Below, in pieces: positions 5,600 to 45,926 of a DNA stretch of 64,000 nucleotides. The position numbers and the translations under genes were made by a program. The first letter of the stretch is position 1, and the number at the start of each line of letters is the position of its first letter. The notes beneath the pieces were generated by a model. That model searched no databases. It had not been told where the DNA came from and saw only the letters and a list, made by a program, of their open reading frames with translations. Origin of the DNA: Minisyncoccota bacterium (GTDB lineage Bacteria > Patescibacteriota > Minisyncoccia > Phycocordibacterales > UBA12088); assembly GCA_041908795.1 (NCBI GenBank), contig JAYRER010000048.1, forward strand, positions 18,413-82,412, in the 5' to 3' direction.

Positions 5600-5600
5600 A

Positions 5601-9005: not shown

Positions 9006-9073
9006 CGAACCCGTGAGGGCTACGTGTGAGGTACTATTGGTACACTACCTTTCACTCGTTGCACAGGTAGTAT

Positions 9074-9734: not shown

Positions 9735-9770
9735 CATTCGTTTAGAACGCTATAGCGTTCTAAACGAATG
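9735..9770. terminator. Perfect 16-bp-stem hairpin (cattcgtttagaacgc-tata-gcgttctaaacgaatg), likely a bidirectional terminator between convergent genes
   Basis: Read directly. TTTT follows the hairpin on the minus strand and an A-rich tract follows on the plus strand. It sits 10 nt after the TVP38 stop. Confidence 0.55.
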
Positions 9771-11709: not shown

Positions 11710-12582
11710 TTGCGGTGAAAAAGGAAACAGTGCGCCTAGAAGTGCAAGAAGATAGTGTCTCCTCCCTGTCACACGAAATGCCTCGTAAAGGCGTTGAATC
11801 GCCCTTCCCTTTTTGCCCGCAAGCAAGAGCCCCATACCTGCACCATACGCAGGAGGGCCGAAATTTGCGGGACAGTGCGCCATGAAGTCATCGTGCATTT
11901 CATCAAGGAAGACGTCGAGTACTTTTGCTCGCTCGATAGAAAGTTTCAGATTTGGTCGCGCACGGTTTTTTGTCACGGAGTACTGGTCGCTGTTTGGATA
12001 GAATATCCCCAGTGGCTCCGCGTGGTAGTACGATTGTGTGCGCTTTTCTATTCTCCTAAAGAATATGAACTGCAGGTACTTTACCTCCCAGCGTGTCGTG
12101 CCGATGATGTTTCTACGAATGGTGGCGAACCCTGTTTTTATCCTGCGCTGGCCTCTCTCGCACAAAAGATCTTCGAAAGGAATCGGCCCGGTGGTACGCT
12201 CAAGACCCGTTACCTCACCGTCCGGCGTACGAAAGGGAGCTCCAACAAACCCAATGTCGGGATACTGTGTATACACCGTATGAATGGTTTCAAGTGCATG
12301 TGGAAAAAGCTCGTCGTCACTGTCCAAAAAAGCAATAATGTCGCCTCGGGCCTCGTCAATACCCCGATTTCTCGCCTTGTTCACTCCTTGGTTAGTGCCT
12401 AAGTTCACGTAGCGAATCTTGGGATGCTTGTACTTCCCCTCAAAGAGTTCCGCAGTCTTGTCCGTTGATCCATCGTCGATGACGATTATCTCAATATCTT
12501 GGAACGTTTGTGCGAGCACACTCTCGAGCGCACGCTGTACAAAAACCTCTCGGTTATACGTCGGAATGATGACGCTTATCAT
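11611..12582 (-). CDS. Glycosyltransferase family 2
   Basis: MISVIIPTYNRE...LDSDDE. GT-A fold with DxD. Confidence 0.85.
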   Translation of the reverse strand: MISVIIPTYNREVFVQRALESVLAQTFQDIEIIVIDDGSTDKTAELFEGKYKHPKIRYVNLGTNQGVNKARNRGIDEARGDIIAFLDSDDELFPHALETIHTVYTQYPDIGFVGAPFRTPDGEVTGLERTTGPIPFEDLLCERGQRRIKTGFATIRRNIIGTTRWEVKYLQFIFFRRIEKRTQSYYHAEPLGIFYPNSDQYSVTKNRARPNLKLSIERAKVLDVFLDEMHDDFMAHCPANFGPPAYGAGMGLLLAGKKGRAIQRLYEAFRVTGRRHYLLALLGALFPFSPQLLRALYRRRERNYAASSGTPKQRSESGKSHDK

Positions 12583-12584
12583 AG

Positions 12585-13298
12585 CTACCGAAATATCTTG
12601 TCACGAACATCGCGTGCGCGCCAGTAGAGCGGTGTGAGCATGAGGCGGAACTTCCAAAATGGAATATTGCGCGAAATGATGACCCGCGGTATGGCGTAGG
12701 GGTCGAGCGTCTCCCCGTCGTAGAGCACGCCGACGGGGCCGGTGGCATACTCGTAGTATTTCGCGGCAAACTTTTTCACCCGTGCGTCGAAGTTACCCTT
12801 GGGGTACGCAAGACCCACAACCTTCTTCTGTAAGTTGTCCTCTATGAGTTGTTTTGAGTGTGAGAGCTCGTAGTCAAGCTCACTGTCGGAGAGTGTGGTG
12901 AGGAGCGGGTGCGTGTGGGTGTGGCTCTCGATTGAAACGAGTCCGCTCGACTCAAGCTCTCGCATCTGCTCCCATGAGAGAAATCGAAATGTGAACCCCT
13001 CGGCATTCGTGTGGTCCTTCCCCACAAAATCAGTGGCAACAAAGATGGTGGCGTGTATGTTGTGCTTTTTTAAGATTGGGAGTGCGTTGGTGAGATTGTC
13101 CTCAAGACCGTCGTCGAATGAAAATGTAACATATACACAGTTCGCAGGGCTTACCCCCATTCGTGACAAGTTTTTGACTTGGCTTACCTGCGTAGAGCTA
13201 TTTTTGATCCTGTCATACTGCTGATTAAGTACATAGGGCTGTACAGCATGTACGTATGCCAAGTCAGACACCGAATGGTATGCGTAATTGAGTAGCAT
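12585..13298 (-). CDS. Polysaccharide deacetylase (CE4/NodB family), copy 1
   Basis: TFSFDDG...ALPILKKHNIHATIF...HTHTHP (NodB motifs). Confidence 0.8.
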   Translation of the reverse strand: MLLNYAYHSVSDLAYVHAVQPYVLNQQYDRIKNSSTQVSQVKNLSRMGVSPANCVYVTFSFDDGLEDNLTNALPILKKHNIHATIFVATDFVGKDHTNAEGFTFRFLSWEQMRELESSGLVSIESHTHTHPLLTTLSDSELDYELSHSKQLIEDNLQKKVVGLAYPKGNFDARVKKFAAKYYEYATGPVGVLYDGETLDPYAIPRVIISRNIPFWKFRLMLTPLYWRARDVRDKIFR

Positions 13299-14266
13299 TA
13301 CGCTGTGTTATGTTGTTTTTTGTAGTAGTCCCGCATCCACTCAACCGTGCGTCGCACACCCTCTTCAAGCGATACCGAATTTGTATGTCGTAAATCTCGC
13401 ACAGATTTACTTACATCCACATGTTTGTTTTTTGTGGTAAGTATCTCACTTTCAGCATAAGAGATGAGAGAAACATCTGCATGGGTATACTTCCACACAA
13501 GAGTAGCCAAATCTTCAATAGAATGTTCTTCGCTTCCTCCGATATTGTAGACTTCCCCCGCCTTAAAGTTGTCCACGATATTGCTAAGAGTTCGTACACT
13601 GTCTTCAAGGAACGTGGAAGTGCGAGTATGTCCGCGATACACAGTAACCGGTAACCCATGGAGGGCGTGGTATGTAAACTTGCAATTAACACTTCTGTAG
13701 GGATGGTACCACTCACCCGGTCCATACGTATTGAAAAGACGCACTACTACAGTTTCCGTTCCATGTTGTATTCTTGAGTTACGTACCTGTTGTTCATTTA
13801 CCCACTTTGAAAGAGCGTAATCATTGAGTTGCTTGACCTCTGTGGTATCCATTACATCCTCAACCATGGTGTCGGGAAAATCCCCATACACCTCTGAAGA
13901 AGAAAAATGTATGAGTTTAAAACGGAGCTTCTCCTGTAACCGGAGCATATGTTTTGTTCCAATAGCGTTGGAGCGCCAGACTTGCTCATAAAAATCCTCT
14001 CCATTCCACCTCCCAAACTCCGCCGCCGCGTGGTACACAAAGTCAAAGGTGCCATGCTTCTCGAACACCCGCTCAATTTGACGATAGTCGCCAACATCAC
14101 AACGTGAGTAAGAAGCCTCTGTTTTTGACATTTCATGTTCCCACCCAACCTCTCCTGGAGCGTGTTCCAAATCAACCCCAAACACGCTATGGCCTTTCTC
14201 TGTAAGCATAGCAACAAGCCATGTACCCACCACCCCACGAGATCCAGTCACAAGTATTCTCGACAT
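13298..14266 (-). CDS. NAD-dependent epimerase/dehydratase (SDR family)
   Basis: ILVTGSRGVVG Rossmann motif. YxxxK present. Confidence 0.8.
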   Translation of the reverse strand: MSRILVTGSRGVVGTWLVAMLTEKGHSVFGVDLEHAPGEVGWEHEMSKTEASYSRCDVGDYRQIERVFEKHGTFDFVYHAAAEFGRWNGEDFYEQVWRSNAIGTKHMLRLQEKLRFKLIHFSSSEVYGDFPDTMVEDVMDTTEVKQLNDYALSKWVNEQQVRNSRIQHGTETVVVRLFNTYGPGEWYHPYRSVNCKFTYHALHGLPVTVYRGHTRTSTFLEDSVRTLSNIVDNFKAGEVYNIGGSEEHSIEDLATLVWKYTHADVSLISYAESEILTTKNKHVDVSKSVRDLRHTNSVSLEEGVRRTVEWMRDYYKKQHNTA

Positions 14267-14294
14267 ATAAGGAATATTACATCAACATTTTCAT

Positions 14295-15107
14295 TTATTC
14301 CACTCGCTTTGCCAAAAAAACAAGGTGCCTTCCTAAAGGCAGTGCTGTTCTGCCAAGCGCTTGTTCGAAGGAAATAATGAGCCACCGCAGAGGTGCAAGG
14401 TGTAAAGGATACTTCAATAATGTATCAAAATACGGTCCGTCAACGTAGGAGCAGTACCTCACTTTTTTGACATCAAACCCATGCTGTTCAAGACTGGCTC
14501 GCAAACTTGTTCTACTAAATTCCCGTACATGTGCATCACCGTGACGTGCGAGCTCTTCAATAGTGAAATGCTCAAGTGAGTGGAACGACCGATACCCCAG
14601 CGTCCGCATGAGTCGACCCCACCACGTGCCATCGGCATTGTAGTTTGGTGTGGTGAGAAGCAAGTAGCCCCCGGGCTTGATGAGGCGACGCAATTCTTTC
14701 AGCATGGCGTCTTTATCGTGCACATGCTCTATCACCTCGGAGCTGATAGCGACATCAAATGAAGCATCATCTGCTGGTATTCTTTCGCCAACCGATGCAG
14801 TGAACGTTATGTGCTCCGCTTCACAAAGTGCTTTTTGCTTGTTTGCTTCGGTAATGAAGCTCTCAGCGATATCTACACCGAGCCCCTTATGAATGGTGTC
14901 GCGCGCACGAAGAAGTTGGCGCCCTGTTGCACAACCCACATCGATAACCGCCTCATGTGGCACGGTCCGAAGCAATCGATCGATTGCCTCCTCTCGCACA
15001 TAGTTGGTGAGACCCACGCGGTGTGTAGGTTGAAACTTGTACCCTCCGTAGAGGTACGCTTTCTCTTTTCCAAACTGCTCCCACATTAGTTTGTAGCTAC
15101 TACTCAT
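14295..15107 (-). CDS. Class I SAM-dependent methyltransferase, copy 1
   Basis: VIDVGCATG motif I, EVIEHV, PGGYLLLTTPN. Confidence 0.8.
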   Translation of the reverse strand: MSSSYKLMWEQFGKEKAYLYGGYKFQPTHRVGLTNYVREEAIDRLLRTVPHEAVIDVGCATGRQLLRARDTIHKGLGVDIAESFITEANKQKALCEAEHITFTASVGERIPADDASFDVAISSEVIEHVHDKDAMLKELRRLIKPGGYLLLTTPNYNADGTWWGRLMRTLGYRSFHSLEHFTIEELARHGDAHVREFSRTSLRASLEQHGFDVKKVRYCSYVDGPYFDTLLKYPLHLAPLRWLIISFEQALGRTALPLGRHLVFLAKRVE

Positions 15108-16245
15108 GGTCTAGTTCGCTCACAGCCGAAGCAAATTGCTTTCCTATGGTATGCCATGACAGGTACTCCGCTGTAAAAGCCCGTGCTGCGTTCCCCACTT
15201 TTACACGTCCAGCAGGCCCCATGGCGTGTACCTCCTTGAGGGCCTGTGTGAGTCCATCCACAATACTGGACGGGGAAATCACAATGAACGGCGAGGGTGC
15301 CACCTGCTTCTTTTGAAGTTCCGCAACCGGTCCCACATCGGTGACGATAACGGGGACACCGAGCGCAAGGTACTCGGGTAGTTTCGAAGGAAATGCGTAC
15401 TCGGTCATTGGATGGAGAGGTCGGGGAATCGAAAGCACGTCAGCTTTTGAAATAATTTTTCCTACGTCCGTATGAGGAACATTCTGGTGAAGTTCGATTG
15501 AAACATCCAAATGCTTTTCCTTCAATAGATTACGCAATTCCCCCGCATCCCCACTCACCACAAACAGCAATGTGAACGGGAACGATTTTTCGGATTGTAT
15601 TCTTGCAACGGCCTCTATGAGATCTTCTGTCCCCTGGTACCCACGAAGGTTGCCCATGTACCCTATCACAAGTGGCGTAGAAGGAGCTGTGACATCCTTT
15701 TCAGTGTGCACAGGATAGTCCTCCAAGTCCACACCACCATAGATGGGCACGAACTTCGAATTAACCCACGCGTAGTAAGAACCGAGTTTGCTTGAAACAG
15801 GAAATACACGATCGTACCAGAAAAGCCAAAAAGCGGTGCGCAGTTTCATGCACCAACTTTTCCAATGCCCTATCGCTCCCTTGAATCGCCACTCTTCGTG
15901 CAGCAGTCCATGGAGGTCAATACCTATGGAAACCCCAGTACACAACTTAAGCACTACAGGCAATTTAACGTTCGTTTCTGTACTGGTTAAAACCACTTCA
16001 ATCTTTCTTTCACGCACCAGTCGCTTCAATGTGGTAAGTTTTTGTATGGATGTGCCTGTGGGGTAAGGTATAAAATCAACATTCTTCGCATCTGTACCAA
16101 GCGCACACACCGTAACATCGTGATGCTTGGTGAGTTCCGTCAGTAAGTGGTGAATACGAATCGGTGTTCCACGAAGTGGATTCCGAAGGTCGGTGCTTGT
16201 GATATACAACACCTTCTTACGAACAATTTGGTTATCTTGGTTCAT
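15100..16245 (-). CDS. Glycosyltransferase family 4 (GT-B)
   Basis: 381 aa. C-terminal GT1/GT4 domain (EYLALGVPVIVTDVG). Confidence 0.8.
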   Translation of the reverse strand: MNQDNQIVRKKVLYITSTDLRNPLRGTPIRIHHLLTELTKHHDVTVCALGTDAKNVDFIPYPTGTSIQKLTTLKRLVRERKIEVVLTSTETNVKLPVVLKLCTGVSIGIDLHGLLHEEWRFKGAIGHWKSWCMKLRTAFWLFWYDRVFPVSSKLGSYYAWVNSKFVPIYGGVDLEDYPVHTEKDVTAPSTPLVIGYMGNLRGYQGTEDLIEAVARIQSEKSFPFTLLFVVSGDAGELRNLLKEKHLDVSIELHQNVPHTDVGKIISKADVLSIPRPLHPMTEYAFPSKLPEYLALGVPVIVTDVGPVAELQKKQVAPSPFIVISPSSIVDGLTQALKEVHAMGPAGRVKVGNAARAFTAEYLSWHTIGKQFASAVSELDHE

Positions 16246-16630
16246 TCTTTGCAGAATTACATTAGAATCTCCACACCAAAAGTCTCCATCTCAAACGCGG
16301 CGACAACCAGACGCCTTGTGAGTTCCAGTTCTATCGTACGGCACCAGCTGAAACAGGTGCCTCGCCTTTCTCCTCTCATACGTGAGAATAGTATACCTCT
16401 AAGCCGGAAGCGCCACATATGAGACAAGGAGTATGACTTTACATTTTATTGTATCTTTTTGTACACGTCACTTTCTTCAGCTGATGGTGCACCGCCGTAG
16501 AGCGTTTCAGCGATGAGTTCTGGTTTGGTCGCGAGGCACATGCGAGTATGGTATCACACAGCACGTGCAATTCGTATTTCAAAATCATGGAAATGTGTCA
16601 GTTTACATGAGTGGAAATCAAGCAAATCAG

Positions 16631-17824
16631 CTAATTTCCATGAGTTTGTATGAATTTGAGGATGTTGTGCGCTCGTTTTTCCCACGTGTACTTTTCCTTT
16701 ACCTCGCGGCGGGCTTTCTCTGCGCGGGTGGCGGCCGCCTCCTGGTCGGCAAGCACGGCGTGTACGCCGCGCGCCATGTCCTCCGCGTCGCCGGGTCGCA
16801 CAAACACCGCGAGCGATTCGTCGAGTATTTCCCGCACACTCGGAAGGTCGGTCGTCACCATGGGGATCCCGCTCGCCATGTACTCAAAGAGCTTGATGGG
16901 GCTCATGAAGAGGCGGTAGTGTTCGAGGTCGGGGTACGCCATCACCAGCACGTCACAGACGAGGAAGTACTGCGGGAACTCCTTCTGGGGAATGTGCCCC
17001 ACCACCGTCACATCCTCCCGTGCGATACCCGCTGCGGCGCAGAGCTCATTGATGTACGGCTTTTCATGCTCCTCGACACCCGCCAAAAAGAGGAGCGCGT
17101 GCGGGTGCTTTTTCTTCACCGCCGGGAAGCCCTCGATGAGCTCCTCGACCCCCTTGCCCTTGCCCATGGTGGTGATTTTCCCGAGGTGGCCCACGATGAG
17201 CCGATCTTCGGGAAGACCGAGCGCCACGCGGAGCTCCGACTTTGTAAGCGGACTCTCAAACCGCTCGGGCGAAACGGCGTCGGGCGCCACGAGTACCTTT
17301 TCGGGGAGAATGTTCCACGTACGTACATAAAAGTCCTTGAGTCCTTTGGTTATCGCCACACAGTGGTGCACATTACGCAGTATTGCTCGAATATGAATGA
17401 GTGGCCGTTTAGTATGGATTTCGTATACGAGGCGGTTTGTACATAAGCTCAAGAAGAATCCCGTAACCTCATCACGCGAATAAATGACATCGGGTTTCAA
17501 AACGAGTGCACGAACAGTCGCTACAAGAGCAAACGTTAGCAATTGCAACAAGTGCCCCGTTTTCCCAAGCCAATGCCACTCAAGTGACGGACATCGCACT
17601 ACTCGAAAGGAGTGGGTCACTCCGTAGAACGCACACACATCTTCTTTCAAGCGATACTTGCTGTCGGCGGTAACTAATGTCACCTCCACCTTCTCTCCAT
17701 GCATAGTTGCATGAGAAAACGCCTCGCACATTTTAACAATTTGGACGCTATATGCCTTGTGTGAAGGTATACGCCCGTTTGAGACATACACAAGATGCAT
17801 ACTTCTAGTTCTTAGGAGAGACAA
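16631..17824 (-). CDS. Glycosyltransferase family 4 (GT-B)
   Basis: EYMASGIPMVTTDLP. GT4 C-terminal domain. Alternative start at 17800. Confidence 0.8.
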   Translation of the reverse strand: MSLLRTRSMHLVYVSNGRIPSHKAYSVQIVKMCEAFSHATMHGEKVEVTLVTADSKYRLKEDVCAFYGVTHSFRVVRCPSLEWHWLGKTGHLLQLLTFALVATVRALVLKPDVIYSRDEVTGFFLSLCTNRLVYEIHTKRPLIHIRAILRNVHHCVAITKGLKDFYVRTWNILPEKVLVAPDAVSPERFESPLTKSELRVALGLPEDRLIVGHLGKITTMGKGKGVEELIEGFPAVKKKHPHALLFLAGVEEHEKPYINELCAAAGIAREDVTVVGHIPQKEFPQYFLVCDVLVMAYPDLEHYRLFMSPIKLFEYMASGIPMVTTDLPSVREILDESLAVFVRPGDAEDMARGVHAVLADQEAAATRAEKARREVKEKYTWEKRAHNILKFIQTHGN

Positions 17825-19469
17825 TAAAACGATTGTTGATTACCAAAAAATCAATCGCTCCGGTTGTACACGAACGCAGCGCATCGTCCACCGATGACAC
17901 TATGGGCTCCTCGTGCATATTAAAGCTGGTGTTCACCACACAGGGGATACCTGTGTGTCGGTGGTAGGCGGCAATGACATCGTAGTACGCTGGATTGACT
18001 TCCCTTCGTACAAGCTGTGGACGCGCGGTACCGTCCACATGGGTGACAGCCGCAATCTTAGCCCTCCACTCCGGCCGCACGGAATATGTCACCGTCATAA
18101 ACTCCGCCGCATGGCGGGACGGCTCCACATTCTCAAATAAGCTATCAGCATGCTCGTAGAGGACACTCGGTGCAAAGGGCATAAACTCACTCCTGCGTAA
18201 TTTTTTGTTGAGCGAGTCGTTTATAGTATGGTCGGTTGGACGAGCAAGTATGCTTCGATGTCCTAGTGCCCTTGGGCCAAATTCCATCCTGCCGTCAAAC
18301 CACCCCACCACCTTCCCCTCTTGAAGAAGTACCCCAACGCGTTCGGCCGTATCTTTTTCTTCTTGATACAGAATTTTATTTGCCTCGAGGTATGCTCGAA
18401 CGGCTTCATCTGACGCGTGAGTTCCAAAATACACATGCGGTAGGCGAGACGAGTCCTTCTTTTTCTCGCATTTCACGTGGTGATAGTACAGTGCACTCCC
18501 AAGCACCAGCCCCTCATCACCCATCGCCGGCTCGACAAATAATTGCTCTGGCTGACAACGTTCAACAATGCGCTGGTTCATTTTCACATTTGCAAAAACT
18601 CCTCCCGCGACGGCAACTTTGCGTACGCCCGTACGGTCCATGAGTGCACTCACGTGACTCACCACTCGCTCTTCCAGGAGGTGTTGGGCATACGACGCCA
18701 CCTCTTCTCGCGTGAAGCGTGCACATAATGCAGCCACCCACTTCTGAAGCTCTTTACTGGTACCACGATGAAAGTGGAGCCCGTCTTCGCTTACGGTAAC
18801 AGGATCAGGTGCACTATGTGGCGCAACAATTTCTGGGTCTGCATACGCCGCAAGGCCCACCACCTTTCCCTCATGACGATTTGGTGTAAAGCCAAGACCC
18901 TTGGTGACATGTTCGTAAAACGCTCCCAGTGACTCGCCCGTATCCCCTTGCACTATCTTCTTCCATGACACCCCCTCCACAACCCATGCGGTATGCGAGA
19001 GTGAATCACCAAGCCCATCCAATGTTACGACGAGCGCCTTGTCAAACCCGGAATGGAAGTAAGCGCTGGCGGCGTGCGCGGTATGATGATCCAGAAAAAA
19101 GAACTCGGGCTTCTTAGGCAGGGAATGAAACAAACGGCGTATATCTCTCTCACGCCGAAACACTTGGTAAATATTCAGCATGTTCCCAAGTGTAATTTTA
19201 GGTCGATAGGAGATGAAACCATTTATCCCACCTAACTCAAACTTGCGCTTGAGGTACCCAGCGGCATCAAGATGGGAAACCGTCACCACGTCAATATCTG
19301 AAAGCGAGAGGCCACTATCGGTGAGTACAAATTCTAATGCCTGTGTGGGAAAACCCCAGTAAAATTTTTTACGGTTAAGACGCTCCTCGGAAACACACGA
19401 CTCTACCACGCCGTTTTTGAGCACGGCGGCGGAAGCGTTATGTCCATCATGGATCGAGAGTATGTTCAT
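17805..19469 (-). CDS. Carbamoyltransferase (NodU/CmcH/HypF-like family)
   Basis: MNILSIHDGHNASAA...HHTAHAASAYFHSGF...FMPFAPS (carbamoyltransferase N- and C-terminal domains). Start trimmed to the internal ATG at 19469. Confidence 0.8.
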   Translation of the reverse strand: MNILSIHDGHNASAAVLKNGVVESCVSEERLNRKKFYWGFPTQALEFVLTDSGLSLSDIDVVTVSHLDAAGYLKRKFELGGINGFISYRPKITLGNMLNIYQVFRRERDIRRLFHSLPKKPEFFFLDHHTAHAASAYFHSGFDKALVVTLDGLGDSLSHTAWVVEGVSWKKIVQGDTGESLGAFYEHVTKGLGFTPNRHEGKVVGLAAYADPEIVAPHSAPDPVTVSEDGLHFHRGTSKELQKWVAALCARFTREEVASYAQHLLEERVVSHVSALMDRTGVRKVAVAGGVFANVKMNQRIVERCQPEQLFVEPAMGDEGLVLGSALYYHHVKCEKKKDSSRLPHVYFGTHASDEAVRAYLEANKILYQEEKDTAERVGVLLQEGKVVGWFDGRMEFGPRALGHRSILARPTDHTINDSLNKKLRRSEFMPFAPSVLYEHADSLFENVEPSRHAAEFMTVTYSVRPEWRAKIAAVTHVDGTARPQLVRREVNPAYYDVIAAYHRHTGIPCVVNTSFNMHEEPIVSSVDDALRSCTTGAIDFLVINNRFIVSPKN

Positions 19470-19580
19470 AGCGAACGCGTCATGTGAGCAGTGTACCGTT
19501 TTTCCGAACAACACGCACCACCTGCACGCTGTGGGCTTTGTGCGAGGGGAGCTTGGTATTGGCAATGTAGAGGAGTCGGG

Positions 19581-19892
19581 TCATGAGTTTTGCTCGTCTA
19601 GAAGGCGCGCGGTGTGCAGGATTCGAGAAACGCGAAGGTCTGTATCTACCAAATCGTAGTAGATACAGTATCTTGGCGCGAACACAAACGAACGGAGACC
19701 GGGGCGGACATCGTCGCGCAACCTCCCTATCTCCCCGTGACAGGCGAGTATCGTGCAGCACCGTTCAAGGTTACGTACAAACTTTTCTGCGGCGCGCACG
19801 TCGTGGTCAGACAGGTAGCGCAGTATTTCCTCCACATCACGGAGTGCGGGTTCAGAAAACTCATAGCCGCCATCCCTAGTGCGTTTGGTCAT
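19581..19892 (-). CDS. parE: Type II toxin, ParE/RelE superfamily
   Basis: 103 aa small basic protein, translationally coupled (4-nt overlap) to the upstream antitoxin. ParE-like CxYYxxxxD core. Confidence 0.65.
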   Translation of the reverse strand: MTKRTRDGGYEFSEPALRDVEEILRYLSDHDVRAAEKFVRNLERCCTILACHGEIGRLRDDVRPGLRSFVFAPRYCIYYDLVDTDLRVSRILHTARLLDEQNS

Positions 19893-20188
19893 GGAGTGAC
19901 CTTGTTCCTTTTGTGCTTTTTAAGTATTTCTCGTGCCCGACGGAACACCGTATCACTCGAAACAGTCTTACCTTGCTCTATTGCGGCGTCACCCACTGCA
20001 ATCGCGGTTTGAAGCGCAATAAGCTCTTGCTGACGAAACAACTCCTCCATCTCAAGTTTGCGCAGTGACTCACGGACCACCTCGCTCGCAGAGATGTAGC
20101 GGCCGGATTTTACCTGGTCGCGAATAAACTTCTCCTGTTCCTTGGTAAGTGAAATGTTAGCCATACACCAATGGTACCGGTATAACAA
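19889..20188 (-). CDS. parD: Type II antitoxin, ParD family (COG3609-like)
   Basis: MANISLTKEQEKFIRDQVKSGRYISASEVVRESLRKLE matches the ParD/CC2985 antitoxin N-terminus. Likely start at 20164. Confidence 0.65.
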   Translation of the reverse strand: MLYRYHWCMANISLTKEQEKFIRDQVKSGRYISASEVVRESLRKLEMEELFRQQELIALQTAIAVGDAAIEQGKTVSSDTVFRRAREILKKHKRNKVTP

Positions 20189-20194
20189 AAATTG

Positions 20195-21382
20195 TCAATT
20201 TTTGTTATACGCCTCGTTTTGCCCGGATAGCATTTCCATCACCCCATTGTACTCCGAGAGACGCCCTGCGACGTACATGCGGGCTCGCGCAACACGCTCG
20301 GCAATTGTGGGGTGAGCGGTGCGGATGCGGTCGAGCTCTCGGTCAAGTGCTTCAATGCCGTTCTCTTCACCCCACACGAAGGCACGCTCACCCTTTTCCC
20401 CGGCACTCTCGAGGAGCCCCTCCGCACGGCTCACGATACAAGGTGTCCCCACGTACATGGCCTCGAGTGGCACCATGCCGAGCGACTCACTGCGCGAGAA
20501 AAGCAGGAAGACATCGGCGTCAACGTAGTACCGCCAGAGCTCATGGTGAGGCACGGTGCCCGCAAAACGTACGTGGTCGGCGACACCGAGCGTGACTGCG
20601 AGCACTTCGAGACGGTCGCGGAGAATGCCGTCGCCCGCTATGACGAGTGTCGCCTCTTTGAGGGCGAGAGCGGCAAACGCCGTGAGCAAGCGGTCGAACC
20701 CTTTTTCAGGTTCAAGCCGGCCGACCGAGAGGAGCATGAGGTGCCCGTCGGGAACGGCAAGCGCGGCCCGCACCGAGCCCTTGTGCTCGCGGGCGGTCGT
20801 GAGGTCCGCGGAGTCGCGCGAGAGCGTGTCGGGGAAAAAGCGATGCGTGCGGCTCGCCGGTATGCCCACGTGTTGCGCGTAGAGCGCCGCCGCGCGGCTG
20901 TTGACGAAGCACACATCAACGCGCGGCACGGCGATGCGCTCGATCTGCGCCTCCACGAAAAGCTTGAGTCGTGCGAGGGGGCGCGTCTTGAGAAGCGTTG
21001 CGGGCAGGTTCGCCACAAACAGCACGACGCGCGCACCCGTCTCTTTGCGCACTCGTGCGGCCGCGGGCACCAAGCTCATGTCGTAGGTCACAACCGCGTC
21101 CGGCACGTACCCCCGCGCACGCAAGAGTGCGGGTAAACGAAGCATCATGACAAGTGCATAGAACGGGCGAAGGTGTCTGAAGCGAGCACGCAGGTGCACC
21201 GTTTCGAAGTGGTCGTCCACCCTGAGGTAGTAGTGCTCTGGCCCGAAGGACACGAGGAACATGTCGCACTCGGCAAGGCGTATGCCATCGCGCTCGAACT
21301 TGGTCCGCATCTCGGGCACGTTGGTTTTGGCGAGGTTGCGCCAATCGAAACTGAGGCAAACGAGTCGAGGTCGGGTGGTCAT
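20195..21382 (-). CDS. Glycosyltransferase family 4 (GT-B)
   Basis: LEAMYVGTPCIVSRAEG. GT4 domain. Start trimmed to ATG (MTTRPRLV). Confidence 0.8.
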   Translation of the reverse strand: MTTRPRLVCLSFDWRNLAKTNVPEMRTKFERDGIRLAECDMFLVSFGPEHYYLRVDDHFETVHLRARFRHLRPFYALVMMLRLPALLRARGYVPDAVVTYDMSLVPAAARVRKETGARVVLFVANLPATLLKTRPLARLKLFVEAQIERIAVPRVDVCFVNSRAAALYAQHVGIPASRTHRFFPDTLSRDSADLTTAREHKGSVRAALAVPDGHLMLLSVGRLEPEKGFDRLLTAFAALALKEATLVIAGDGILRDRLEVLAVTLGVADHVRFAGTVPHHELWRYYVDADVFLLFSRSESLGMVPLEAMYVGTPCIVSRAEGLLESAGEKGERAFVWGEENGIEALDRELDRIRTAHPTIAERVARARMYVAGRLSEYNGVMEMLSGQNEAYNKN

Positions 21383-21478
21383 GTGTGTGCGCGAAAGAGG
21401 GCACAGCCCTCGTACCACGGCTCTCCCGGGTGAGGTTGCCGGATGCCTCTGCGGTATGCGCAGTATACCCCGTGTGCG

Positions 21479-22459
21479 CTACGTGCGCCGCGCTTCAGCT
21501 GCCGGCGTCGCAAACCGCTTTCGTGCCTCCGCTTTGGGGCCGTAGAGGTTGTGAGTGTACCACGCCACCGCCCGCTCGATGCCGTCTTCCACCAAGACCT
21601 CGGGTTTGTACCCGAAGTGGTGCTTGGCGCGCGAGATGTCGGCGATGTACTTCACCACCTCCCCTGTGCGGTTATCGTGTATCTCGATATCGTTGTCGGT
21701 GCCGAGTTGACGCTTCATGAACTCCGCCACTTCGACGAGCGATTTGCCCTGCCCGTAGGCGATGTTGAACATCCCGCCGGTACCCGCTTCGAAGTGCTCG
21801 ATGCCAAGCAAAATGCCGCGCACGGCATCGCTGATGTAGGTGAAGTCGAGGAGCTTGTCGCGCCCGAAAATCTTAAGCGGCTCACCCGCGAGGCACTGCC
21901 GGATGAAGAGGGGCACGACGCGGTCACTCTCATCATAGAGCCCGTAGACGTTGCTGAAGCGGTAGATAATCGCCTTAAGGCCGTAGCATTTCTGGTAACT
22001 GTGGACGAGCGCTTCCCCGCTCATCTTGCTTGCGGTGTAGGGGCTCGGGCAGTTCCAGATGCGCGTGTCCTCTTCGGCGTGGGTCACCTTGCCCGTGTTG
22101 CCATAGACCTCACGACTTGAGGCAAACATGAGGCGTGGCATGTTCCTGCGGCGCACGTACTCGAGCACGTTGAAGACCGATAGAAAGTTGTCGCGCGCGA
22201 GTGTGGGGTCAATGACGAGGTTGTGCACTCGGGCATTCGCCGCGAGGTGGATGACGAGGTCAGTGCCACCATCGGGGAGCTTTTCGAGCACACCCTCAAG
22301 GTCACGCAGGTCTTGGCGGATGGTCTTTGCTTCAATGACCGGATCCCACTTGTTTTCGCGCCAGTCGACACCGGTCACCTCAAAACCCTGCGCCAACAAC
22401 TTCTGGCACAAGTAGGTACCAATGGTACCACTGCTTCCCGTAACAAGGACCCTTCGCAT
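21479..22459 (-). CDS. NAD-dependent epimerase/dehydratase (UDP-sugar 4-epimerase-like)
   Basis: MRRVLVTGSSGTIGTYL...YTASKMSGE (GxxGxxG, YxxxK). Start trimmed to 22459. Confidence 0.85.
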   Translation of the reverse strand: MRRVLVTGSSGTIGTYLCQKLLAQGFEVTGVDWRENKWDPVIEAKTIRQDLRDLEGVLEKLPDGGTDLVIHLAANARVHNLVIDPTLARDNFLSVFNVLEYVRRRNMPRLMFASSREVYGNTGKVTHAEEDTRIWNCPSPYTASKMSGEALVHSYQKCYGLKAIIYRFSNVYGLYDESDRVVPLFIRQCLAGEPLKIFGRDKLLDFTYISDAVRGILLGIEHFEAGTGGMFNIAYGQGKSLVEVAEFMKRQLGTDNDIEIHDNRTGEVVKYIADISRAKHHFGYKPEVLVEDGIERAVAWYTHNLYGPKAEARKRFATPAAEARRT

Positions 22460-22476
22460 AGCGTACCCAGAGTGTA

Positions 22477-24585
22477 CTACTCCTTGCCAAGGTCGGACAA
22501 CTTGTCCCAATCCACATAATGTAGCCGAACAGTGCTCCCGGGCACGATGCCACGCTCGTCGTAGATAATAGGCACCGCTTCTTTGTACCGAGGGTCGTCG
22601 AGCTCCGCGAGGTAGGGCTTTAGCGAAACCGTGCGGTCGGAAATGATGAGCCACGTGCCACGCGGGTCGCGGTGGTACGCGAGCGCCTCCTCCAAGGTGT
22701 CGAACTTGCCGTAGCGAATGATCTCAAGCCCCGTCTCGGGCGCCTTGAGCTCGGAGAGGTTGCGCCCCGCAACGGTGGTGTCGGGAAGAAGCATCATGGG
22801 GTAATCGCCCTCATCAAATGAGACGAGGGTGCCCCGCGCCTTCTCGGCCGTCACGTACGCCCATGCGGGAAGTGTGCTTTGGTCTGCGCGCTTCATGAGG
22901 AGCATCGCGGGTGTGATAAGCGACCAGAGCACAATAGCGAGTGTGAGCGTGGCGAGGATCGTTCGCTCGTAGCGGTGTCGACCAACCGCGTGGCGGATGC
23001 CGAGAAAAGCGACGAGCGCAACGAGCGGAACGATGGGCACCACGTAGCGCCCCTCGGCAAACACCGAGTAGAGTGGCGCGAGACCGGCGACAAATATACC
23101 CATGAAGAGCGCGACGGGAATGAACCGGCGTGTTGAGATACACAGGAAAAGTCCGCCAATATACGGCAAGAGGAGAACGGGCAGAATGACCGAACTGAAG
23201 CTGTTGGGCTCCCAGCCGTGCACCATGGAAAACACAAGCTTCACGAAACCATCTATGACAAACTTGTGGAACACCTCCGCAGAGGTGTGCGTGGCGAGGT
23301 ACTCTCCCAAGGTCGGCACCGGCACGTTCGGTGTCCACACATCCATGGTGAAGTCTTCGACGAAGTACTTGTCGTTTTGGCCGTAGGTAAACGCGCTCCC
23401 GAAGGCTTCATGACGCGCAATGAGGAATGGGGCCGAGAGCGCAAAGAAGAGCGCGATGAGCCCAACGGAAGCGAGTGCCACGTGGCCTGCGTGCTCGACA
23501 AGCGAGCGCGCATGGTCGCGGATGCGCACGTGTGTCGCGAGGTAGGTGAGCACCACAACACCGAGGACAAAAAGACCGTTTGCGCGCACGTAGTAGGAGA
23601 TGGAGGCAAATATGACGGCATAGAGAATATGGTGGGGGCGTTCGAGCGAACGAATGCAGAAGTAGAGTGCCATGAGGGAGAGCACGAGAAAGAGCCCGTC
23701 GGAGGAGAAAATGGTTGAGTAGTAGATGAGCCACGGATGCGCGGCAATGGTGAACGTCACGAGTGCGGTAGAGAAGCGGTCGAGGAATTGCCGCGCAATG
23801 AGCCACGTCGGCACAACCGCAAGCGCACCCACAATAACCCCGAAGAGCTGTGCATAGGGCATGAGCTCGAAGCGGCTTATGGGCTCGAGAAGCCATACAA
23901 ACGGCGCGAACAAGAGCGAGGTGCCGATTGCGTGCGAGTAGGGAGGTACCCAGTTGCCCTGCGCTATCTCTATAGCTTTTAAGAGGTAGAGGTAGGAGTC
24001 ACCCGTGAAGGTGGCGACTGCAGAAAAATCGGTTGCAACGTAGCGTACCACGAGCGCGAAGACGAATGTAGCTCCAAGGAGAAAGAGTGAGCCCCGCTCG
24101 AAGACCGGTTCGCGTTCCTCACCGCGCGCACGCTCCGATATACCCTTACGTACGAGCTCTCGCAGGGTAAGATGGTCGTTCTCCTTGTGAATGAGTCCGA
24201 AGGTGAAGTGCTTGTGCCCCCAAAAGCTCCAGACTGCAACGACGGTGACTGCAATGAGTTTTGCGATGAGCACGTGCGCATTTGTGCCCTCCACGAGAGC
24301 GGTTATGACCGCCTGGTTTATCACGAGCCCCACAAGCGCAACCGCAACAAACACACCCGCCTGCGTCGCCACGCGCGTGCTCGTGTTATTGAAGGTGAAC
24401 ACTTTGTTGAGCGAAAAGTTCGTCGCCATGCCGGCGCAGTAGCCAAGGCCCGCTGCCCAAAAGTAGTGGAGGCCCGCACCCGCCGTAAGCACTGAGAGGA
24501 GCCCCATATCAACGACTGTCGCCGCACCCGCAAAAACCGCGTAGACAAAAAACTGCCGTACGCTGTCGCTCACTCGCTCCATCAT
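22477..24585 (-). CDS. Fusion protein: N-terminal GtrA-like domain plus large polytopic GT-C-type membrane glycosyltransferase
   Basis: The N-terminal 130 aa have a GtrA-like 4TM pattern (FFVYAVFAGAATVVDMGLL...NKVFTF). About 570 aa with more than 12 TM follow. Confidence 0.65.
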   Translation of the reverse strand: MMERVSDSVRQFFVYAVFAGAATVVDMGLLSVLTAGAGLHYFWAAGLGYCAGMATNFSLNKVFTFNNTSTRVATQAGVFVAVALVGLVINQAVITALVEGTNAHVLIAKLIAVTVVAVWSFWGHKHFTFGLIHKENDHLTLRELVRKGISERARGEEREPVFERGSLFLLGATFVFALVVRYVATDFSAVATFTGDSYLYLLKAIEIAQGNWVPPYSHAIGTSLLFAPFVWLLEPISRFELMPYAQLFGVIVGALAVVPTWLIARQFLDRFSTALVTFTIAAHPWLIYYSTIFSSDGLFLVLSLMALYFCIRSLERPHHILYAVIFASISYYVRANGLFVLGVVVLTYLATHVRIRDHARSLVEHAGHVALASVGLIALFFALSAPFLIARHEAFGSAFTYGQNDKYFVEDFTMDVWTPNVPVPTLGEYLATHTSAEVFHKFVIDGFVKLVFSMVHGWEPNSFSSVILPVLLLPYIGGLFLCISTRRFIPVALFMGIFVAGLAPLYSVFAEGRYVVPIVPLVALVAFLGIRHAVGRHRYERTILATLTLAIVLWSLITPAMLLMKRADQSTLPAWAYVTAEKARGTLVSFDEGDYPMMLLPDTTVAGRNLSELKAPETGLEIIRYGKFDTLEEALAYHRDPRGTWLIISDRTVSLKPYLAELDDPRYKEAVPIIYDERGIVPGSTVRLHYVDWDKLSDLGKE

Positions 24586-26093
24586 GCGCTCACGTGTGCC
24601 GGCTCACCCTCCGGTTTCTTTTCCTCCCCCTTCTTTTCACGGAGCTTGCCTTTCTCGTAGTACTCCTTCTCCGCACCGATGGCATCGAAGTCGGGCTTCA
24701 CGTGTTTGAGAATACCCTCCGCGGCGGCGATGCCCATTTCGAGCGAGTGGTCTTGGTTGTTGTAGCGGAAGCGGCCGGGCCTGCCGATGTAGTGGAGGTT
24801 CTCGAAGGTGTCGAGCCAACGCTTCACCGTGGCAAGCCGCTCGGGGTACTCGAGGTCGTAAATGGGGTAGACGTGCGCGCGCTCTAGCTTGTAGTAGCTC
24901 CGCACGTCTTTTCGTGTGAAGAAACCGGCTTTCTCGATGTGCGGCATTGCGAGCTCGAAGAGTCGGTCTTTATCGGTGTTCCACAGCTCGTCCCCGCGCG
25001 TGACGAAAAACTCAATGAACCACGACGTCTTGCCCGGAGGGTTCATGTCGTCGCTGAAGTTTTTCATCTCCGCCACACGACCAAACGGTACCTTGGTGTC
25101 GGGGAAGTAAATCCACTGGTCTCCCGTGATGCGCTCCTTGTCGAGTGTCACGAAAAGGTACGTCTGGTCGCGCCACCGTAGCTTGCTCGCCGCTTCGCGC
25201 ACTTCGCTCGGGGGCGCGGGCTCAAGGAGGTCGAGAAAGCGCGTGAGCGGAATGGAGCTCACCAAGGCCTCCGGCTCCATGCGGTAGAGCCCCTCGGGGC
25301 CCTTGAGGTCCAGCGAGGTGATGCGACCGTTCTCGTGGCGAATGACCCTAGGCTCCGTATTGAGGCGGATGTCGCTCCCCTTCTCCTTCACGCGTGCCGC
25401 GATGGTCTCATAGATAAGACCGGTACCGAATTGCGGGTAGTAGAACGTGTCGACGAGCGACTTGGGTTCATCGCGCTTCCCGAGACCGAGCGCTTTTTTC
25501 ACGAGCGAAACGACGATGGCGCGTATGGAGAGCCCCTTGATGCGTTGCGCCGCCCAGTCGGGGTGGAGGGTACTGCACGGTACGCCCCAGATTTTCTCCG
25601 TGTAGTTGAGCATGTTGAACGAGCCGAGCGCGTAGCCGAAGTTTGCGACGATGTAGTCCTCGAACGTAGTCTTCGGGTGGTAGAGAAGGCCGTACTCAAT
25701 GCGCGCGAGCGCATAGGAGAACATCATGCCCGCCGCACGCACGAGACCGATATTCTTTAGCGCCTGGGTGGGATTGATGGGGTAGTCGTAGAACTTCCCA
25801 TCGATGAATTGGCGTGTCTGCCGTTTCACCGTAATCCACTTCTCATTGATGAGGTTCTCAATGAATTCATAGAGGTACGGATTCTTCGAGAAGAAGCGGT
25901 GGGGACCGATATCGGTACGGAAGGTGAGGTTGCCTTCTTTGAACTCAAGAGTCTGCGCGAGTCCTCCCACCCGCTCGTCTCGCTCGATAATAGTTGCGGT
26001 CTTGCCCGCTTTCGTGAGCTCCATCGCGGTCGCCATGCCGGCCGGTCCCGCCCCTACGATGAGTATGCCGCCTTTCGTTTCCATTGGCGACAT
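24582..26093 (-). CDS. FAD-dependent oxidoreductase (amine oxidase / UDP-galactopyranose mutase-like superfamily)
   Basis: ILIVGAGPAGMATAMEL dinucleotide-binding motif, 503 aa. Confidence 0.7.
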   Translation of the reverse strand: MSPMETKGGILIVGAGPAGMATAMELTKAGKTATIIERDERVGGLAQTLEFKEGNLTFRTDIGPHRFFSKNPYLYEFIENLINEKWITVKRQTRQFIDGKFYDYPINPTQALKNIGLVRAAGMMFSYALARIEYGLLYHPKTTFEDYIVANFGYALGSFNMLNYTEKIWGVPCSTLHPDWAAQRIKGLSIRAIVVSLVKKALGLGKRDEPKSLVDTFYYPQFGTGLIYETIAARVKEKGSDIRLNTEPRVIRHENGRITSLDLKGPEGLYRMEPEALVSSIPLTRFLDLLEPAPPSEVREAASKLRWRDQTYLFVTLDKERITGDQWIYFPDTKVPFGRVAEMKNFSDDMNPPGKTSWFIEFFVTRGDELWNTDKDRLFELAMPHIEKAGFFTRKDVRSYYKLERAHVYPIYDLEYPERLATVKRWLDTFENLHYIGRPGRFRYNNQDHSLEMGIAAAEGILKHVKPDFDAIGAEKEYYEKGKLREKKGEEKKPEGEPAHVSA

Positions 26094-26254
26094 AGTAGCA
26101 AATCAGCTACATCCACGCACTTGAACACACAAACCCTTTGTGGCATAGCGCTTGTGTTGCCTCCGCATCCGTGCCACTAGGATGTACAAAATCTGCCAAG
26201 CACATGAGGGCGTAGCAGATCTTTTTTGACGATGCAACGTGTACCGCAAGATGG

Positions 26255-27088
26255 CTATGGCAGATGGAGAAGGTTCCGCGCGTACCGGCGCAGGTAGCGC
26301 CACATGCCATAGGCTGTGTCGTACATGCTGTAGAGCTCGAAGCGAAAAGGTGCGACATCGCGGGCCGGATAGCGCAGACGCAGGAGTGTGTACTTCACAA
26401 TGCGCTTCATAATTTCAAACGCACTCGCCCACTCGTGGTAAAGAAAGTCGAACGGATTTTTCGATGTATAGTCGTCGATGATGCGCGCATTGCGCACCGC
26501 CTTCTTATGCATACGCGCGAAGGTCATGTGTCCGTCGAGTGGCACCAGCCACGGCGCCTCTATGCGGCCGGTCGTGTACGCCTCGGTGTCGTAGCGCACC
26601 TTCTCGTGAATACGCTTCGTCATACGTGCGCCGGTCGTCCTGTCCCACAGGCGCACCTGGTACACACTCTTCCACATGCGGTACCGCACCGTCCCATCCT
26701 CACTCGTGTTCTGTTGACGTACCTCGTAGAACCGGTGCGCAGGGCTCGCTGTGCTCGTAATGGTTCGAATCTCCTCCACGAGCTCGGGGGTCGCAATTTC
26801 GTCCGCGTCGAGGTAGAAAAACCATCGCTGCGTCGCCCTCTCAACTTGTCTATTGCGCTCAAGCGCAAAGTCCTCGATACCTTTCCTCTGACTGCTCTGC
26901 TCCATGATGACTGCTCCGTGTGCACGCGCCACCTCAAGCGTCCCATCGGTTGAGCCGCCATCGGCAACTATCACTTCCGCGAAGTCATGCACACTCGCAA
27001 GACACCGCGCGAGCGACGCCTCACAGTTGTACGTCAAGACGCCGACCGTACAGGAAATGCACGCACGCTGTGAAGTCACTTTTTCCAT
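26255..27088 (-). CDS. Glycosyltransferase family 2
   Basis: VGVLTYNCE...YLDADE (GT-A, DxD). Confidence 0.8.
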   Translation of the reverse strand: MEKVTSQRACISCTVGVLTYNCEASLARCLASVHDFAEVIVADGGSTDGTLEVARAHGAVIMEQSSQRKGIEDFALERNRQVERATQRWFFYLDADEIATPELVEEIRTITSTASPAHRFYEVRQQNTSEDGTVRYRMWKSVYQVRLWDRTTGARMTKRIHEKVRYDTEAYTTGRIEAPWLVPLDGHMTFARMHKKAVRNARIIDDYTSKNPFDFLYHEWASAFEIMKRIVKYTLLRLRYPARDVAPFRFELYSMYDTAYGMWRYLRRYARNLLHLP

Positions 27089-27855
27089 AGGGAGGTGATG
27101 CGCTTGTACACGTCTACCGCGGGTGTGGTGCGAAGTGCGAAAAGTAAAAACGACATTGTGCCCTGGACCTCGACGCGGCGCAGTGCGAAACGATTGCTGT
27201 CGCTCTGCACCGAACCCTCGTACATCCCGAACGCCGCCTCAAACCCCATGTGTTGCGCCTCACCAACCACCGCGTCCGACTTCGCTCCGTACGCGTAGGC
27301 AAGGAGGCGCGGGGTGGTGCCAAGCTCGCGCATAATCGTGGCGCGCGATGTCTCGAGCTCCGAGCGGAGCGCGGTACGGTCCGCTTCGATGTCGGTGAGC
27401 CGCTCGTGCCGGTGGCCGTGCACCTCAATACCCATGCCGCCACGGGCAAGCTCGCGCACCTTATCCCACGAGTCCGGCCGCGCCATGCCAAGGAACGGCT
27501 CGGTCACTGCAAGGTCGGTCGTGAGAAAGAGTGTTGCGGGAACACCATACTTCTTGAGTATCGGAAGCGCGTGGGTGAGCGTATCACGATACCCGTCGTC
27601 GAAGGTGAGCGCGACCGCTCCGCGGGGAAGTGAAGCACCACCAAGGTGTGCGACAACTTCCGTAAGGGAGACGAGCGTACGGTGCCGAGCGAGCCAGCGC
27701 ACCTGCCGCTCGAACACAACGGGTGAAACGGAGAAGCGCGAGGCCGGGTCGGCAACGCTGTGGTAGGTGAGTACGACCGCGCCGCCCTGCCTTCCCGCAC
27801 CCAAGCGCCAGAGCATCCACGCAAGCGCGTAGCCGAGTGTCTTGAGAAACGTCAT
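27076..27855 (-). CDS. Polysaccharide deacetylase (CE4), copy 2
   Basis: ALTFDDGYRDTLTHALPILKKYGVPATLF...HGHRH. Start trimmed to MTFLKTL (27855), which gives a 4-nt ATGA overlap with the upstream methyltransferase. Confidence 0.8.
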   Translation of the reverse strand: MTFLKTLGYALAWMLWRLGAGRQGGAVVLTYHSVADPASRFSVSPVVFERQVRWLARHRTLVSLTEVVAHLGGASLPRGAVALTFDDGYRDTLTHALPILKKYGVPATLFLTTDLAVTEPFLGMARPDSWDKVRELARGGMGIEVHGHRHERLTDIEADRTALRSELETSRATIMRELGTTPRLLAYAYGAKSDAVVGEAQHMGFEAAFGMYEGSVQSDSNRFALRRVEVQGTMSFLLFALRTTPAVDVYKRITSLWKK

Positions 27856-30702: not shown

Positions 30703-30770
30703 AGGGTACCACACCTTGCGACTTCCTGTGAGTTGCGCAGTACCTTGCCCAGCACGTACAATGGCGAAAT

Positions 30771-35225: not shown

Positions 35226-35336
35226 GTGACAGTGTTATACCACATGAAACTATTTTTGTCTCTTTGACAAATGTAACTAGTTTGTGTTATTGTCCGTACT
35301 GGCATATTCTCTGACCCTAGGTGAAGGAGCGCGACA

Positions 35337-36113: not shown

Positions 36114-36178
36114 TTTCGATATCAACTTAACCGCCATGGCAACGTGGCGGTTGTTCTTTTTTGTAAACACAGAGTCAT

Positions 36179-37270: not shown

Positions 37271-37275
37271 GCTCG

Positions 37276-38652: not shown

Positions 38653-38694
38653 AGTGGAAATAGGTACTTGCTAGTGTATAGTATCGTTGTGCAT

Positions 38695-40748: not shown

Positions 40749-40750
40749 AC

Positions 40751-45913: not shown

Positions 45914-45926
45914 AACTACAGTATAC

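Follow-up and report, generated by a model that had tools for sequence, protein, structure and literature searches.

How does a toxin-antitoxin gene pair come to lie in the middle of a long operon of glycan genes, and does it do anything there? Two small minus-strand open reading frames (ORFs) raise this question in a stretch of 64,000 nucleotides from a Minisyncoccota bacterium (contig JAYRER010000048.1 of assembly GCA_041908795.1, positions 18,413 to 82,412), which we call the window and whose own numbering is used throughout. The original prediction, made from the nucleotide sequence, took the two ORFs for a ParD-ParE type II toxin-antitoxin pair, and this identification holds: the genes are small and co-directional, the antitoxin comes first, and both products match their family profiles above threshold. 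We consider it probable that they form an intact, canonical two-gene type II ParDE module, an accessory selfish cassette that carries its own promoter-operator and sits at a seam of a mosaic glycan cluster.

The toxin and its antitoxin

The toxin gene parE occupies 19581-19892 on the minus strand and encodes 103 residues from an ATG start, while the antitoxin gene parD, on the same strand at 19889-20164, encodes 91 residues from its probable ATG start. Both ORFs are present as originally described, as is the overlap of 4 nt between them, the ATGA at 19889-19892, in which the toxin start overlaps the antitoxin stop and through which the two genes are translationally coupled.

The ParE sequence matches Pfam PF05016 with an E value of 8.8e-13 (49.1 bits, cut-off 23) over profile positions 1-88 of 89. 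Its sequence matches in the Protein Data Bank (PDB) include E. coli O157 ParE2, PrpT, Mesorhizobium ParE and M. tuberculosis ParE1 (E 2e-7 to 4e-5), with V. cholerae ParE2 and Caulobacter ParE1 also among them; the E. coli RelE chain is absent from these matches even at E<=10. An exhaustive HMMER search of 1.84 billion representative proteins returned 1074 relatives at E<=1e-3, all of about 95-110 residues and the best with 48% identity. PF05016 was assigned to all 51 aligned sequences (ParE and its relatives), and ParE retains 10 of the 11 columns that are invariant or nearly invariant in the alignment, the start methionine not counted.

An AlphaFold (AF2) model of ParE, built from an alignment of the top 50 relatives, has a pLDDT of 91.1 and a pTM of 0.81, and displays a beta-alpha-alpha-beta3 topology followed by a C-terminal helix (strands 10-12, 67-72, 75-82 and 85-93; helices 14-30, 32-51 and 94-101). 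This is the RelE/ParE (BECR) fold, whose long N-terminal alpha-hairpin lies against the sheet. In a Foldseek search of the PDB with this model, ranks 1-22 are all ParE-type toxins, and ranks 1-15 superpose with TM scores of 0.74-0.85 and rmsd values of 1.2-1.7 Å, with the exception of one 5ceg chain at 2.9 Å. The earlier description of a ParE/RelE-fold toxin is thus borne out by a PF05016 match above the curated threshold, by matches to solved ParE toxins and by the ParE fold of the model.

This fold is shared by toxins with different targets. One subcluster of PF05016 consists of ribosome-dependent mRNases, E. coli RelE among them, so that the family does not separate ParE from some RelE toxins; the gyrase inhibitors of Caulobacter, Mycobacterium and RK2 fall in one subcluster and E. 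coli RelE in another (PMC11980606). The window toxin could on these grounds be a RelE-like ribosome-dependent mRNase and not a gyrase poison, which we think highly improbable. The RNases RelE, YafQ and YoeB are clearly poorer matches to the model (TM 0.46-0.72, rmsd 2.8-6.4 Å), and both the sequence and the structure matches are to ParE-proper toxins, a group that holds validated gyrase inhibitors such as M. tuberculosis ParE1, V. cholerae ParE2 and Caulobacter ParE1 (PMC10899793). Since the closest structural and sequence matches are ParE toxins, and since the partner is a ParD/CC2985-type antitoxin and not RelB, we group the window toxin by its sequence and model with the gyrase-inhibiting ParE-proper toxins and not with the RelE-type RNases, gyrase action itself being a prediction. 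A separate feature of parE, in the 3' part of the gene at 19640-19668, is a pair of perfectly inverted 10-nt arms 9 nt apart, CTGTATCTAC…GTAGATACAG.

The antitoxin was identified by profile TIGR02606 (antidote_CC2985, ParD family; E 2.2e-17, 62.9 bits, cut-off 46.2) and by Pfam PF03693 (E 1.5e-9, 38.5 bits, cut-off 21), with coverage of profile positions 1-60 of 70. Its best PDB sequence match is V. cholerae ParD2 (E 4.9e-6, N-terminal domain), and M. tuberculosis ParD1, Mesorhizobium ParD and Caulobacter ParD1 are matched as well; several solved complexes (8c24, 5ceg, 7r5a, 3kxe, 6x0a and 7ycs) are matched by both ParD and ParE. The model of the ParD monomer (pLDDT 84) has helices at 8-20, 26-63 and 70-87. 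The ribbon does not form in the monomer, and the best Foldseek match, the antitoxin PrpA (7ycs_D), is weak at E 0.31, as would be expected because the extended chain folds on dimerization and toxin binding. ParD is predicted to consist of an N-terminal ribbon-helix-helix (RHH) part that binds DNA and a C-terminal part that binds the toxin.

While the assignment to ParD stands, with support from TIGR02606, PF03693 and the PDB matches, the start codon first proposed does not. The listed antitoxin ORF at 19889-20188 encodes 99 residues from a TTG and is 8 codons longer than the form that begins at ATG 20164, which is probably the true start. The ATG is preferred because the resulting N-terminus aligns with those of homologues, because the same 91-residue protein is called on Logan contig L001 and in the protein collection, and because the TTG extension would enter the palindrome and promoter-like site described below.

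A likely promoter and a palindrome upstream of parD

If the pair is a self-contained module, it might be expected to carry its own control region. An inverted-repeat search found a perfect palindrome of 31 bp at 20180-20210, GTATAACAAAAATTG-N-CAATTTTTGTTATAC, with 15-nt arms and a 1-nt centre that coincides with the final stop-codon base of the GT4 glycosyltransferase gene upstream. It is present as a single copy in the window, and its 15-nt arms compare with longest perfect arms of 8-13 nt (median 9-10) in 30 block shuffles. A sigma-70-like promoter match lies across it on the minus strand at 20171-20198, with agreement at 10 of 12 positions: a -35 box TTGACA (20198-20193) at the centre of the palindrome, a spacing of 16 nt, and a -10 box TACCAT (20176-20171). 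This is the sole match in 19000-21000 and the best of 7 in 12000-31999. The -10 box ends 6 nt upstream of the parD ATG, and transcription is therefore predicted to begin at or next to this ATG, giving a leaderless or near-leaderless transcript.

Such a transcript would not be unusual for this genome. The sequence GGTACCAT at parD fits the pattern GGTANNAT, which is enriched in the window (34 copies observed against 16.8 +/- 4.2 expected, a number reached in none of 100 shuffles). Copies often lie 0-40 nt upstream of start codons, as at 60966-60973, which is 6 nt before the ATG at 60959; further copies are at 9066-9073, 56117-56124 and 57419-57426. The Shine-Dalgarno motif is nearly absent from the genes of the window, including those for EF-G, EF-Tu and the ribosomal proteins. 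These observations suggest that GGTANNAT is a genome-specific -10-like element and that leaderless or short-leader mRNAs are frequent in the host. The proposed leaderless transcription of parD fits the genome because Shine-Dalgarno motifs are rare in it and GGTANNAT is enriched near starts.

RHH antitoxins repress their own promoters through palindromic operators. V. cholerae ParD2, for example, recognizes 33-39 bp of its promoter/operator region, where imperfect palindromic repeats form the operator (PMC10776004). We propose that 20163-20210 is likely to be the promoter-operator of parDE and a candidate operator for ParD; with its embedded -35 box, the perfect palindrome makes a clean candidate of this kind.

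Three observations count against this assignment. Sigma-70-like matches are no more numerous across the operon than in shuffles. Upstream of parD in relatives there is no comparable palindrome, only a 7-nt inverted repeat in one locus (L112) and a 9-nt imperfect one in another (L116). Finally, beyond the perfect arms of mostly 8-10 nt that block shuffles yield, the window contains four further long perfect palindromes, at 9735-9770 (36 bp), 2780-2805 (26 bp), 34329-34359 (14-nt arms, 3-nt loop) and 63687-63715 (13-nt arms, 3-nt loop), of which at least two (9735-9770 and 63687-63715) lie just past gene ends; the one at parD could thus be of a kind of hairpin that marks gene ends across the genome, and could act in the RNA, where the upstream GT4 gene ends. 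The hairpin that it would form in RNA is AU-rich and is not followed by a U-tract, and the folding of the 71-nt region gives z = -1.7. An intrinsic terminator was rejected as the primary reading of the palindrome because of this AU-rich stem and the missing U-tract. The palindromes at 9735-9770 and 63687-63715 follow gene ends at 9724 and 63659 and may themselves be terminator-like hairpins without U-tracts, and the one at 34329-34359 is inside the 3' part of a dehydratase gene (34272-35225).

We also looked for the GTA[C/T] boxes that form the V. cholerae ParD2 motif. Four of them fall within 53 bp upstream of parD (Poisson P 0.007); there are 25 comparable places in the window, and this enrichment was set aside as unconvincing on that account.

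The position of the proposed promoter-operator raises the possibility that parDE acts as a regulatory gate, in which ParD or the ParDE complex blocks read-through from upstream while the parDE promoter drives the downstream carbamoyltransferase, GT4 and methyltransferase genes, so that glycan expression is tied to the toxin:antitoxin ratio. The palindrome and its -35 box lie on the GT4 stop codon, in the path of operon transcription; no minus-strand terminator-like site was found in 19000-21000, and none follows parE; the gaps between the operon genes downstream of parDE are short; no promoter match in the 20-kb operon is better than that of parD; and V. cholerae ParDE operators are known to respond to the toxin:antitoxin ratio (PMC10776004). 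This idea is nevertheless purely positional, and random insertion between genes predicts the same arrangement equally well. Roadblocks formed by small RHH repressors are usually weak, and the absence of parDE from all sampled relatives indicates that the operon evidently works without the module. We therefore regard a gate as very improbable. An extension of it, in which the ParD operator on the GT4 stop codon is a switch that sets the downstream half of the glycan operon and generates cell-to-cell heterogeneity of the surface glycan in episymbiotic Patescibacteria, is in our view exceedingly improbable; if it were true, repression governed by the toxin:antitoxin ratio, together with a leaderless internal promoter, would tune carbamoylation, further glycosylation and methylation.

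A probable seam in the glycan operon

Examination of the sequence on either side of the pair gives insight into how it may have arrived. The pair was originally placed between a GT4 gene and a carbamoyltransferase gene in a long minus-strand operon, and the Pfam matches of the flanking genes agree with this: upstream of parD is a GT4 glycosyltransferase (20195-21418, minus strand; Glycos_transf_1, E 4.8e-34), and downstream of parE a NodU/CmcH-type carbamoyltransferase (17805-19472, minus strand; Carbam_trans_C, E 2.3e-63; Carbam_trans_N, E 9.6e-42) whose true start is the ATG at 19472. The run of about 20 co-directional glycan genes that contains parDE extends from 11611 to about 31604, within a larger glycan region that reaches about 45.9 kb.

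The upstream border of the pair is marked by a step in composition. The upstream GT4 gene is the last gene of a high-GC block (20195-31604) in which the GC content at third codon positions (GC3) of the annotated genes is 0.69-0.79, the exception being an unannotated ORF at 30786-31604 (0.60). GC3 is 0.745 in this GT4 gene, 0.533 in parD, 0.587 in parE and 0.523 in the carbamoyltransferase gene; it is 0.43-0.65 in genes downstream of parDE and 0.55-0.62 in the EF-G and ribosomal protein genes. In 80-nt windows the GC content is 0.36-0.40 at 20140-20259 and 0.60-0.68 from 20220 upward. The break can be placed at about 20220, within the ten codons that end the GT4 gene: at the junction, 20195-20225 on the minus strand, the last ~10 codons (…GQNEAYNKN and stop) are AT-rich and include the left arm of the palindrome. 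Homology of the GT4 protein to its relatives stops at residue 386-398 of 407, which matches the compositional break. The change in GC composition noted earlier near the pair is thus a sharp GC3 step, from 0.745 to 0.533, at about 20220. An assembly, binning or scaffolding chimera was ruled out as its source by the Logan contig L001, an independent assembly that is 100% identical to the window over 19391-20728, both junctions included.

The downstream border of parDE is marked not by a GC step but by the remnant of a gene. A minus-strand ORF of 35 codons at 19480-19587 resembles the 5' end of a GT4 gene over its first ~24 codons: aligned with residues 11-34 of the GT4 protein encoded at 16631-17824, it shares 12 of 24 residues and is similar at 21 of 24 (E 1e-8 in the pairwise comparison); among 17,426 ORFs this was the only meaningful match (E 0.008). 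Its ATG overlaps the parE stop codon as ATGA, and its own stop codon lies 8 nt before the carbamoyltransferase ATG. From its sequence, this ORF reads as the scar of a recombination or deletion. The nearest comparable locus, on a metagenomic contig (L082), encodes a homologue of the upstream GT4 protein with 45% identity, which is followed directly, through an ATGA overlap, by a GT4 gene of the 16631-17824 type and then by a deacetylase gene; this locus contains no toxin-antitoxin pair and no carbamoyltransferase. The earlier suggestion that the pair may mark a recombination junction gains support from the GC3 step upstream, from the GT4 remnant downstream and from the L082 locus that lacks the pair.

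The wider glycan region (11611-45928, about 34 kb), which lies beside the ribosomal protein operon, is itself a compositional mosaic, with GC3 values of 0.43-0.49 at 13298-16245, 0.46 at 32544-33455 beside 0.71 at 33480-34169, and 0.45-0.56 at 34272-45928. This pattern suggests repeated horizontal replacement of segments.

A module within a surface-glycan locus, where phage receptors are made, could also serve in abortive infection, with the region acting as a hotspot of defence and variability. Modules of the RelE/ParE superfamily have been discussed as defence elements (PMC11980606), glycan loci are typically variable, and the adjacent upstream GT4 protein scores above threshold on the Pfam profile PF20706, 'GT4 in conflict systems' (GT4-conflict; 38.6 bits against a threshold of 26), as does its homologue at 1676-2890 of the L082 contig (53 bits). 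This PF20706 score is far below the 117.8 bits of the same protein on the generic GT4 profile, and an unrelated metagenomic GT4 protein matches PF20706 too, so the match is probably cross-family similarity. PADLOC returned nothing for the pair or for four neighbours, no other defence genes were seen among the annotated ORFs, and the viral contigs scanned hold no ParE relative. An anti-phage role is accordingly unlikely.

Distribution and probable role of the module

If parDE is a passenger of this locus, relatives should often lack it. The organism is an uncultured, ultra-small bacterium of the Patescibacteria (Paceibacteria/Parcubacteria-type), with parDE on its chromosome: the EF-G of the window (52109-54253) is 78-88% identical to that of Parcubacteria, Paceibacterota and Kaiserbacteria genomes, and 96% identical to that of assembly GCA_964383505.1, the closest relative. 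A contig of this relative (CAYLHB010000005.1, 28095-49185; L110) is collinear with window positions 64000-43009 at 68-86% nucleotide identity. The collinear part takes in the ribosomal protein operon together with the first of the glycan genes, and the contig runs 28 kb further towards the toxin-antitoxin side.

The pair is not universally conserved; universal conservation at this position is what the original prediction had named as evidence against its own reading. The highest identities found anywhere are 48% for ParE and 51% for ParD: in a word-index search of 5.8 billion clustered proteins, a collection that includes the proteins of GCA_964383505.1, ParE returned only itself and no ParD exceeded 51% identity, and scans of metagenome and viral contigs with ParE gave no relatives. 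In the loci of the nearest relatives (L112, L114, L115 and L116) the antitoxin gene precedes the toxin gene, with the two overlapping or a few bases apart. When 116 loci and the window were scanned with hidden Markov models, no ParE or ParD genes came up apart from those already identified, so ParDE is not a common passenger of the sampled carbamoyltransferase and GT4 loci. Homologues of the carbamoyltransferase in species-representative genomes are 36-44% identical (the best 40-44% among the matches listed) and come from unrelated phyla. The module thus appears, from these comparisons, to be accessory and not conserved in the sampled relatives.

Comparison with characterized systems places the pair within a familiar family. 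Like M. tuberculosis ParDE1 (Rv1960c-Rv1959c; PDB 8c24) and Caulobacter crescentus ParDE1 (PDB 3kxe), it is an antitoxin-then-toxin operon with a ParD/CC2985-type antitoxin, and the ParE fold is common to all three toxins (TM 0.75-0.85, 23-30% identity); the M. tuberculosis and Caulobacter ParE1 toxins inhibit or poison gyrase (PMC10899793; PMC11980606). The window pair differs from these two in its Patescibacteria host, in a glycine at ParE position 53 in place of a near-invariant proline and in its C-terminal tail. V. cholerae ParDE2 (PDB 7r5a, 7b22) is, among solved structures, the closest match to the N-terminal domain of the antitoxin. Its operator consists of 33-39 bp of imperfect palindromic GTA[C/T]/GGTA boxes (PMC10776004), whereas the window palindrome is perfect, 31 bp long and of another sequence; the window parD likewise has four GTA[C/T] boxes, together with the palindrome, in the 48 bp upstream, a count that is not statistically unusual. 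The V. cholerae genes lie in a superintegron cassette with attC sites, in contrast to the window parDE, which has neither attC nor integrase.

The best toxin match is to E. coli O157 PaaA2-ParE2 (PDB 5cw7, 5czf; E 1.9e-7, 31% identity, TM 0.74-0.82). The PaaA2-ParE2 system has a third gene, and DNA binding there falls to its product, the separate regulator PaaR2; the window pair is a plain two-gene module, and its antitoxin is of the ParD/CC2985 type and not PaaA2. Within the Parcubacteria, Ca. Nealsonbacteria DGGOD1a carries toxin/antitoxin families, some of them in predicted genomic islands that they were proposed to maintain (bioRxiv 10.1101/2022.04.20.488981). The report on DGGOD1a describes no ParDE pair in a glycan operon, and its sequences show no relationship to ours at the level that these comparisons can detect.

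Several further observations weigh against an intact module carried in as a cassette. Position 53 of ParE is glycine where at least 90% of relatives carry proline, the C-terminal tail is atypical in comparison with aligned relatives, and among the NCBIfam profiles no toxin model matches ParE. The large ORFs of the window contain no integrase, transposase or recombinase Pfam domain, and no direct repeats of at least 10 nt flank parDE. In addition, the absence of parDE from relatives rests on incomplete metagenome-assembled genomes, and the contig of the closest relative was compared at window positions 43009-64000. Of the earlier view that the pair belongs to a mobile or variable island, the compositional discontinuity at the upstream border therefore remains, while the hallmarks of a mobile element (integrase, transposase, flanking direct repeats) were not found. 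An integron cassette was likewise rejected. An attC site is an imperfect palindrome of at least 60 bp with RYYYAAC / GTTRRRY cores and an integron integrase nearby; the palindrome at 20180-20210 is perfect, has 31 bp and ends in GTATAAC / GTTATAC, each one base off the core consensus, and the window contains no attC-like site and no integrase among its annotated ORFs.

The substitution at position 53 and the unusual C-terminus, together with the orphan status of the sequence (no more than 48% identity to anything) and the evidence of deletion directly adjoining parDE, would also fit a decaying or domesticated, non-toxic remnant that persists solely through its recent capture in the operon. Judged by their profiles, however, neither ORF is truncated (1-88 of 89 and 1-60 of 70), all but one of the 11 conserved toxin columns are kept, the ParE model is confident, and the ATGA coupling and the perfect palindrome are intact; the chance that the pair is such a remnant seems to us low.

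Taken together, these data favour the intact ParDE module. By analogy with its family, ParD dimers would neutralize ParE with their C-terminal helices wrapped around the toxin, and their N-terminal RHH ribbon would serve to repress their own promoter; once the labile antitoxin is no longer renewed, free ParE would poison DNA gyrase. The module would carry the TTGACA-16-TACCAT promoter, with its -35 box in the palindrome over the GT4 stop codon, and transcription would begin at or next to the parD ATG. Composition and scars suggest that it became lodged at a recombination seam, with the end of the high-GC block at its upstream edge and the 5' remnant of a GT4 gene at its downstream edge. Its most likely effect, given this context, would be to make loss of the segment costly (addiction), and it probably takes no direct part in the chemistry of the glycan.

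The pair is a divergent orphan within the well-known ParDE family and leaves the current understanding of that family unchallenged. Its value is mostly that of a correct annotation, the toxin sharing no more than 48% identity with any other among billions of sequences. Very small (reduced) genomes have been hypothesized to largely lack toxin-antitoxin systems (PMC12455944), and the phylum of this host is one with very small genomes. The pair also locates a seam of the 34-kb mosaic glycan region to within a few bases, and may serve as a landmark for the reshuffling of surface-polysaccharide loci in Patescibacteria.

Other features of the window stand apart from parDE. Its sole tRNA gene is 17.5 kb from the pair. 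A minus-strand ORF of 586 residues at 4028-5788 joins a YkuD L,D-transpeptidase to a Peptidase_S11 D-Ala-D-Ala carboxypeptidase, an unusual fusion of two peptidoglycan-remodelling activities. Two adjacent paralogous ORFs on the minus strand, at 39882-40748 and 40751-41674 (288 and 307 residues), each match only part of the N-terminal and central domains of UDP-glucose/GDP-mannose dehydrogenases; tandem duplication, truncation of the enzymes or the splitting of one gene could each account for them. The close packing of the minus-strand operon is interrupted by a gap of 385 nt at 16246-16630, which holds a weak promoter-like site at 16471-16443 (9 of 12 positions) and may be an internal transcription-unit boundary.

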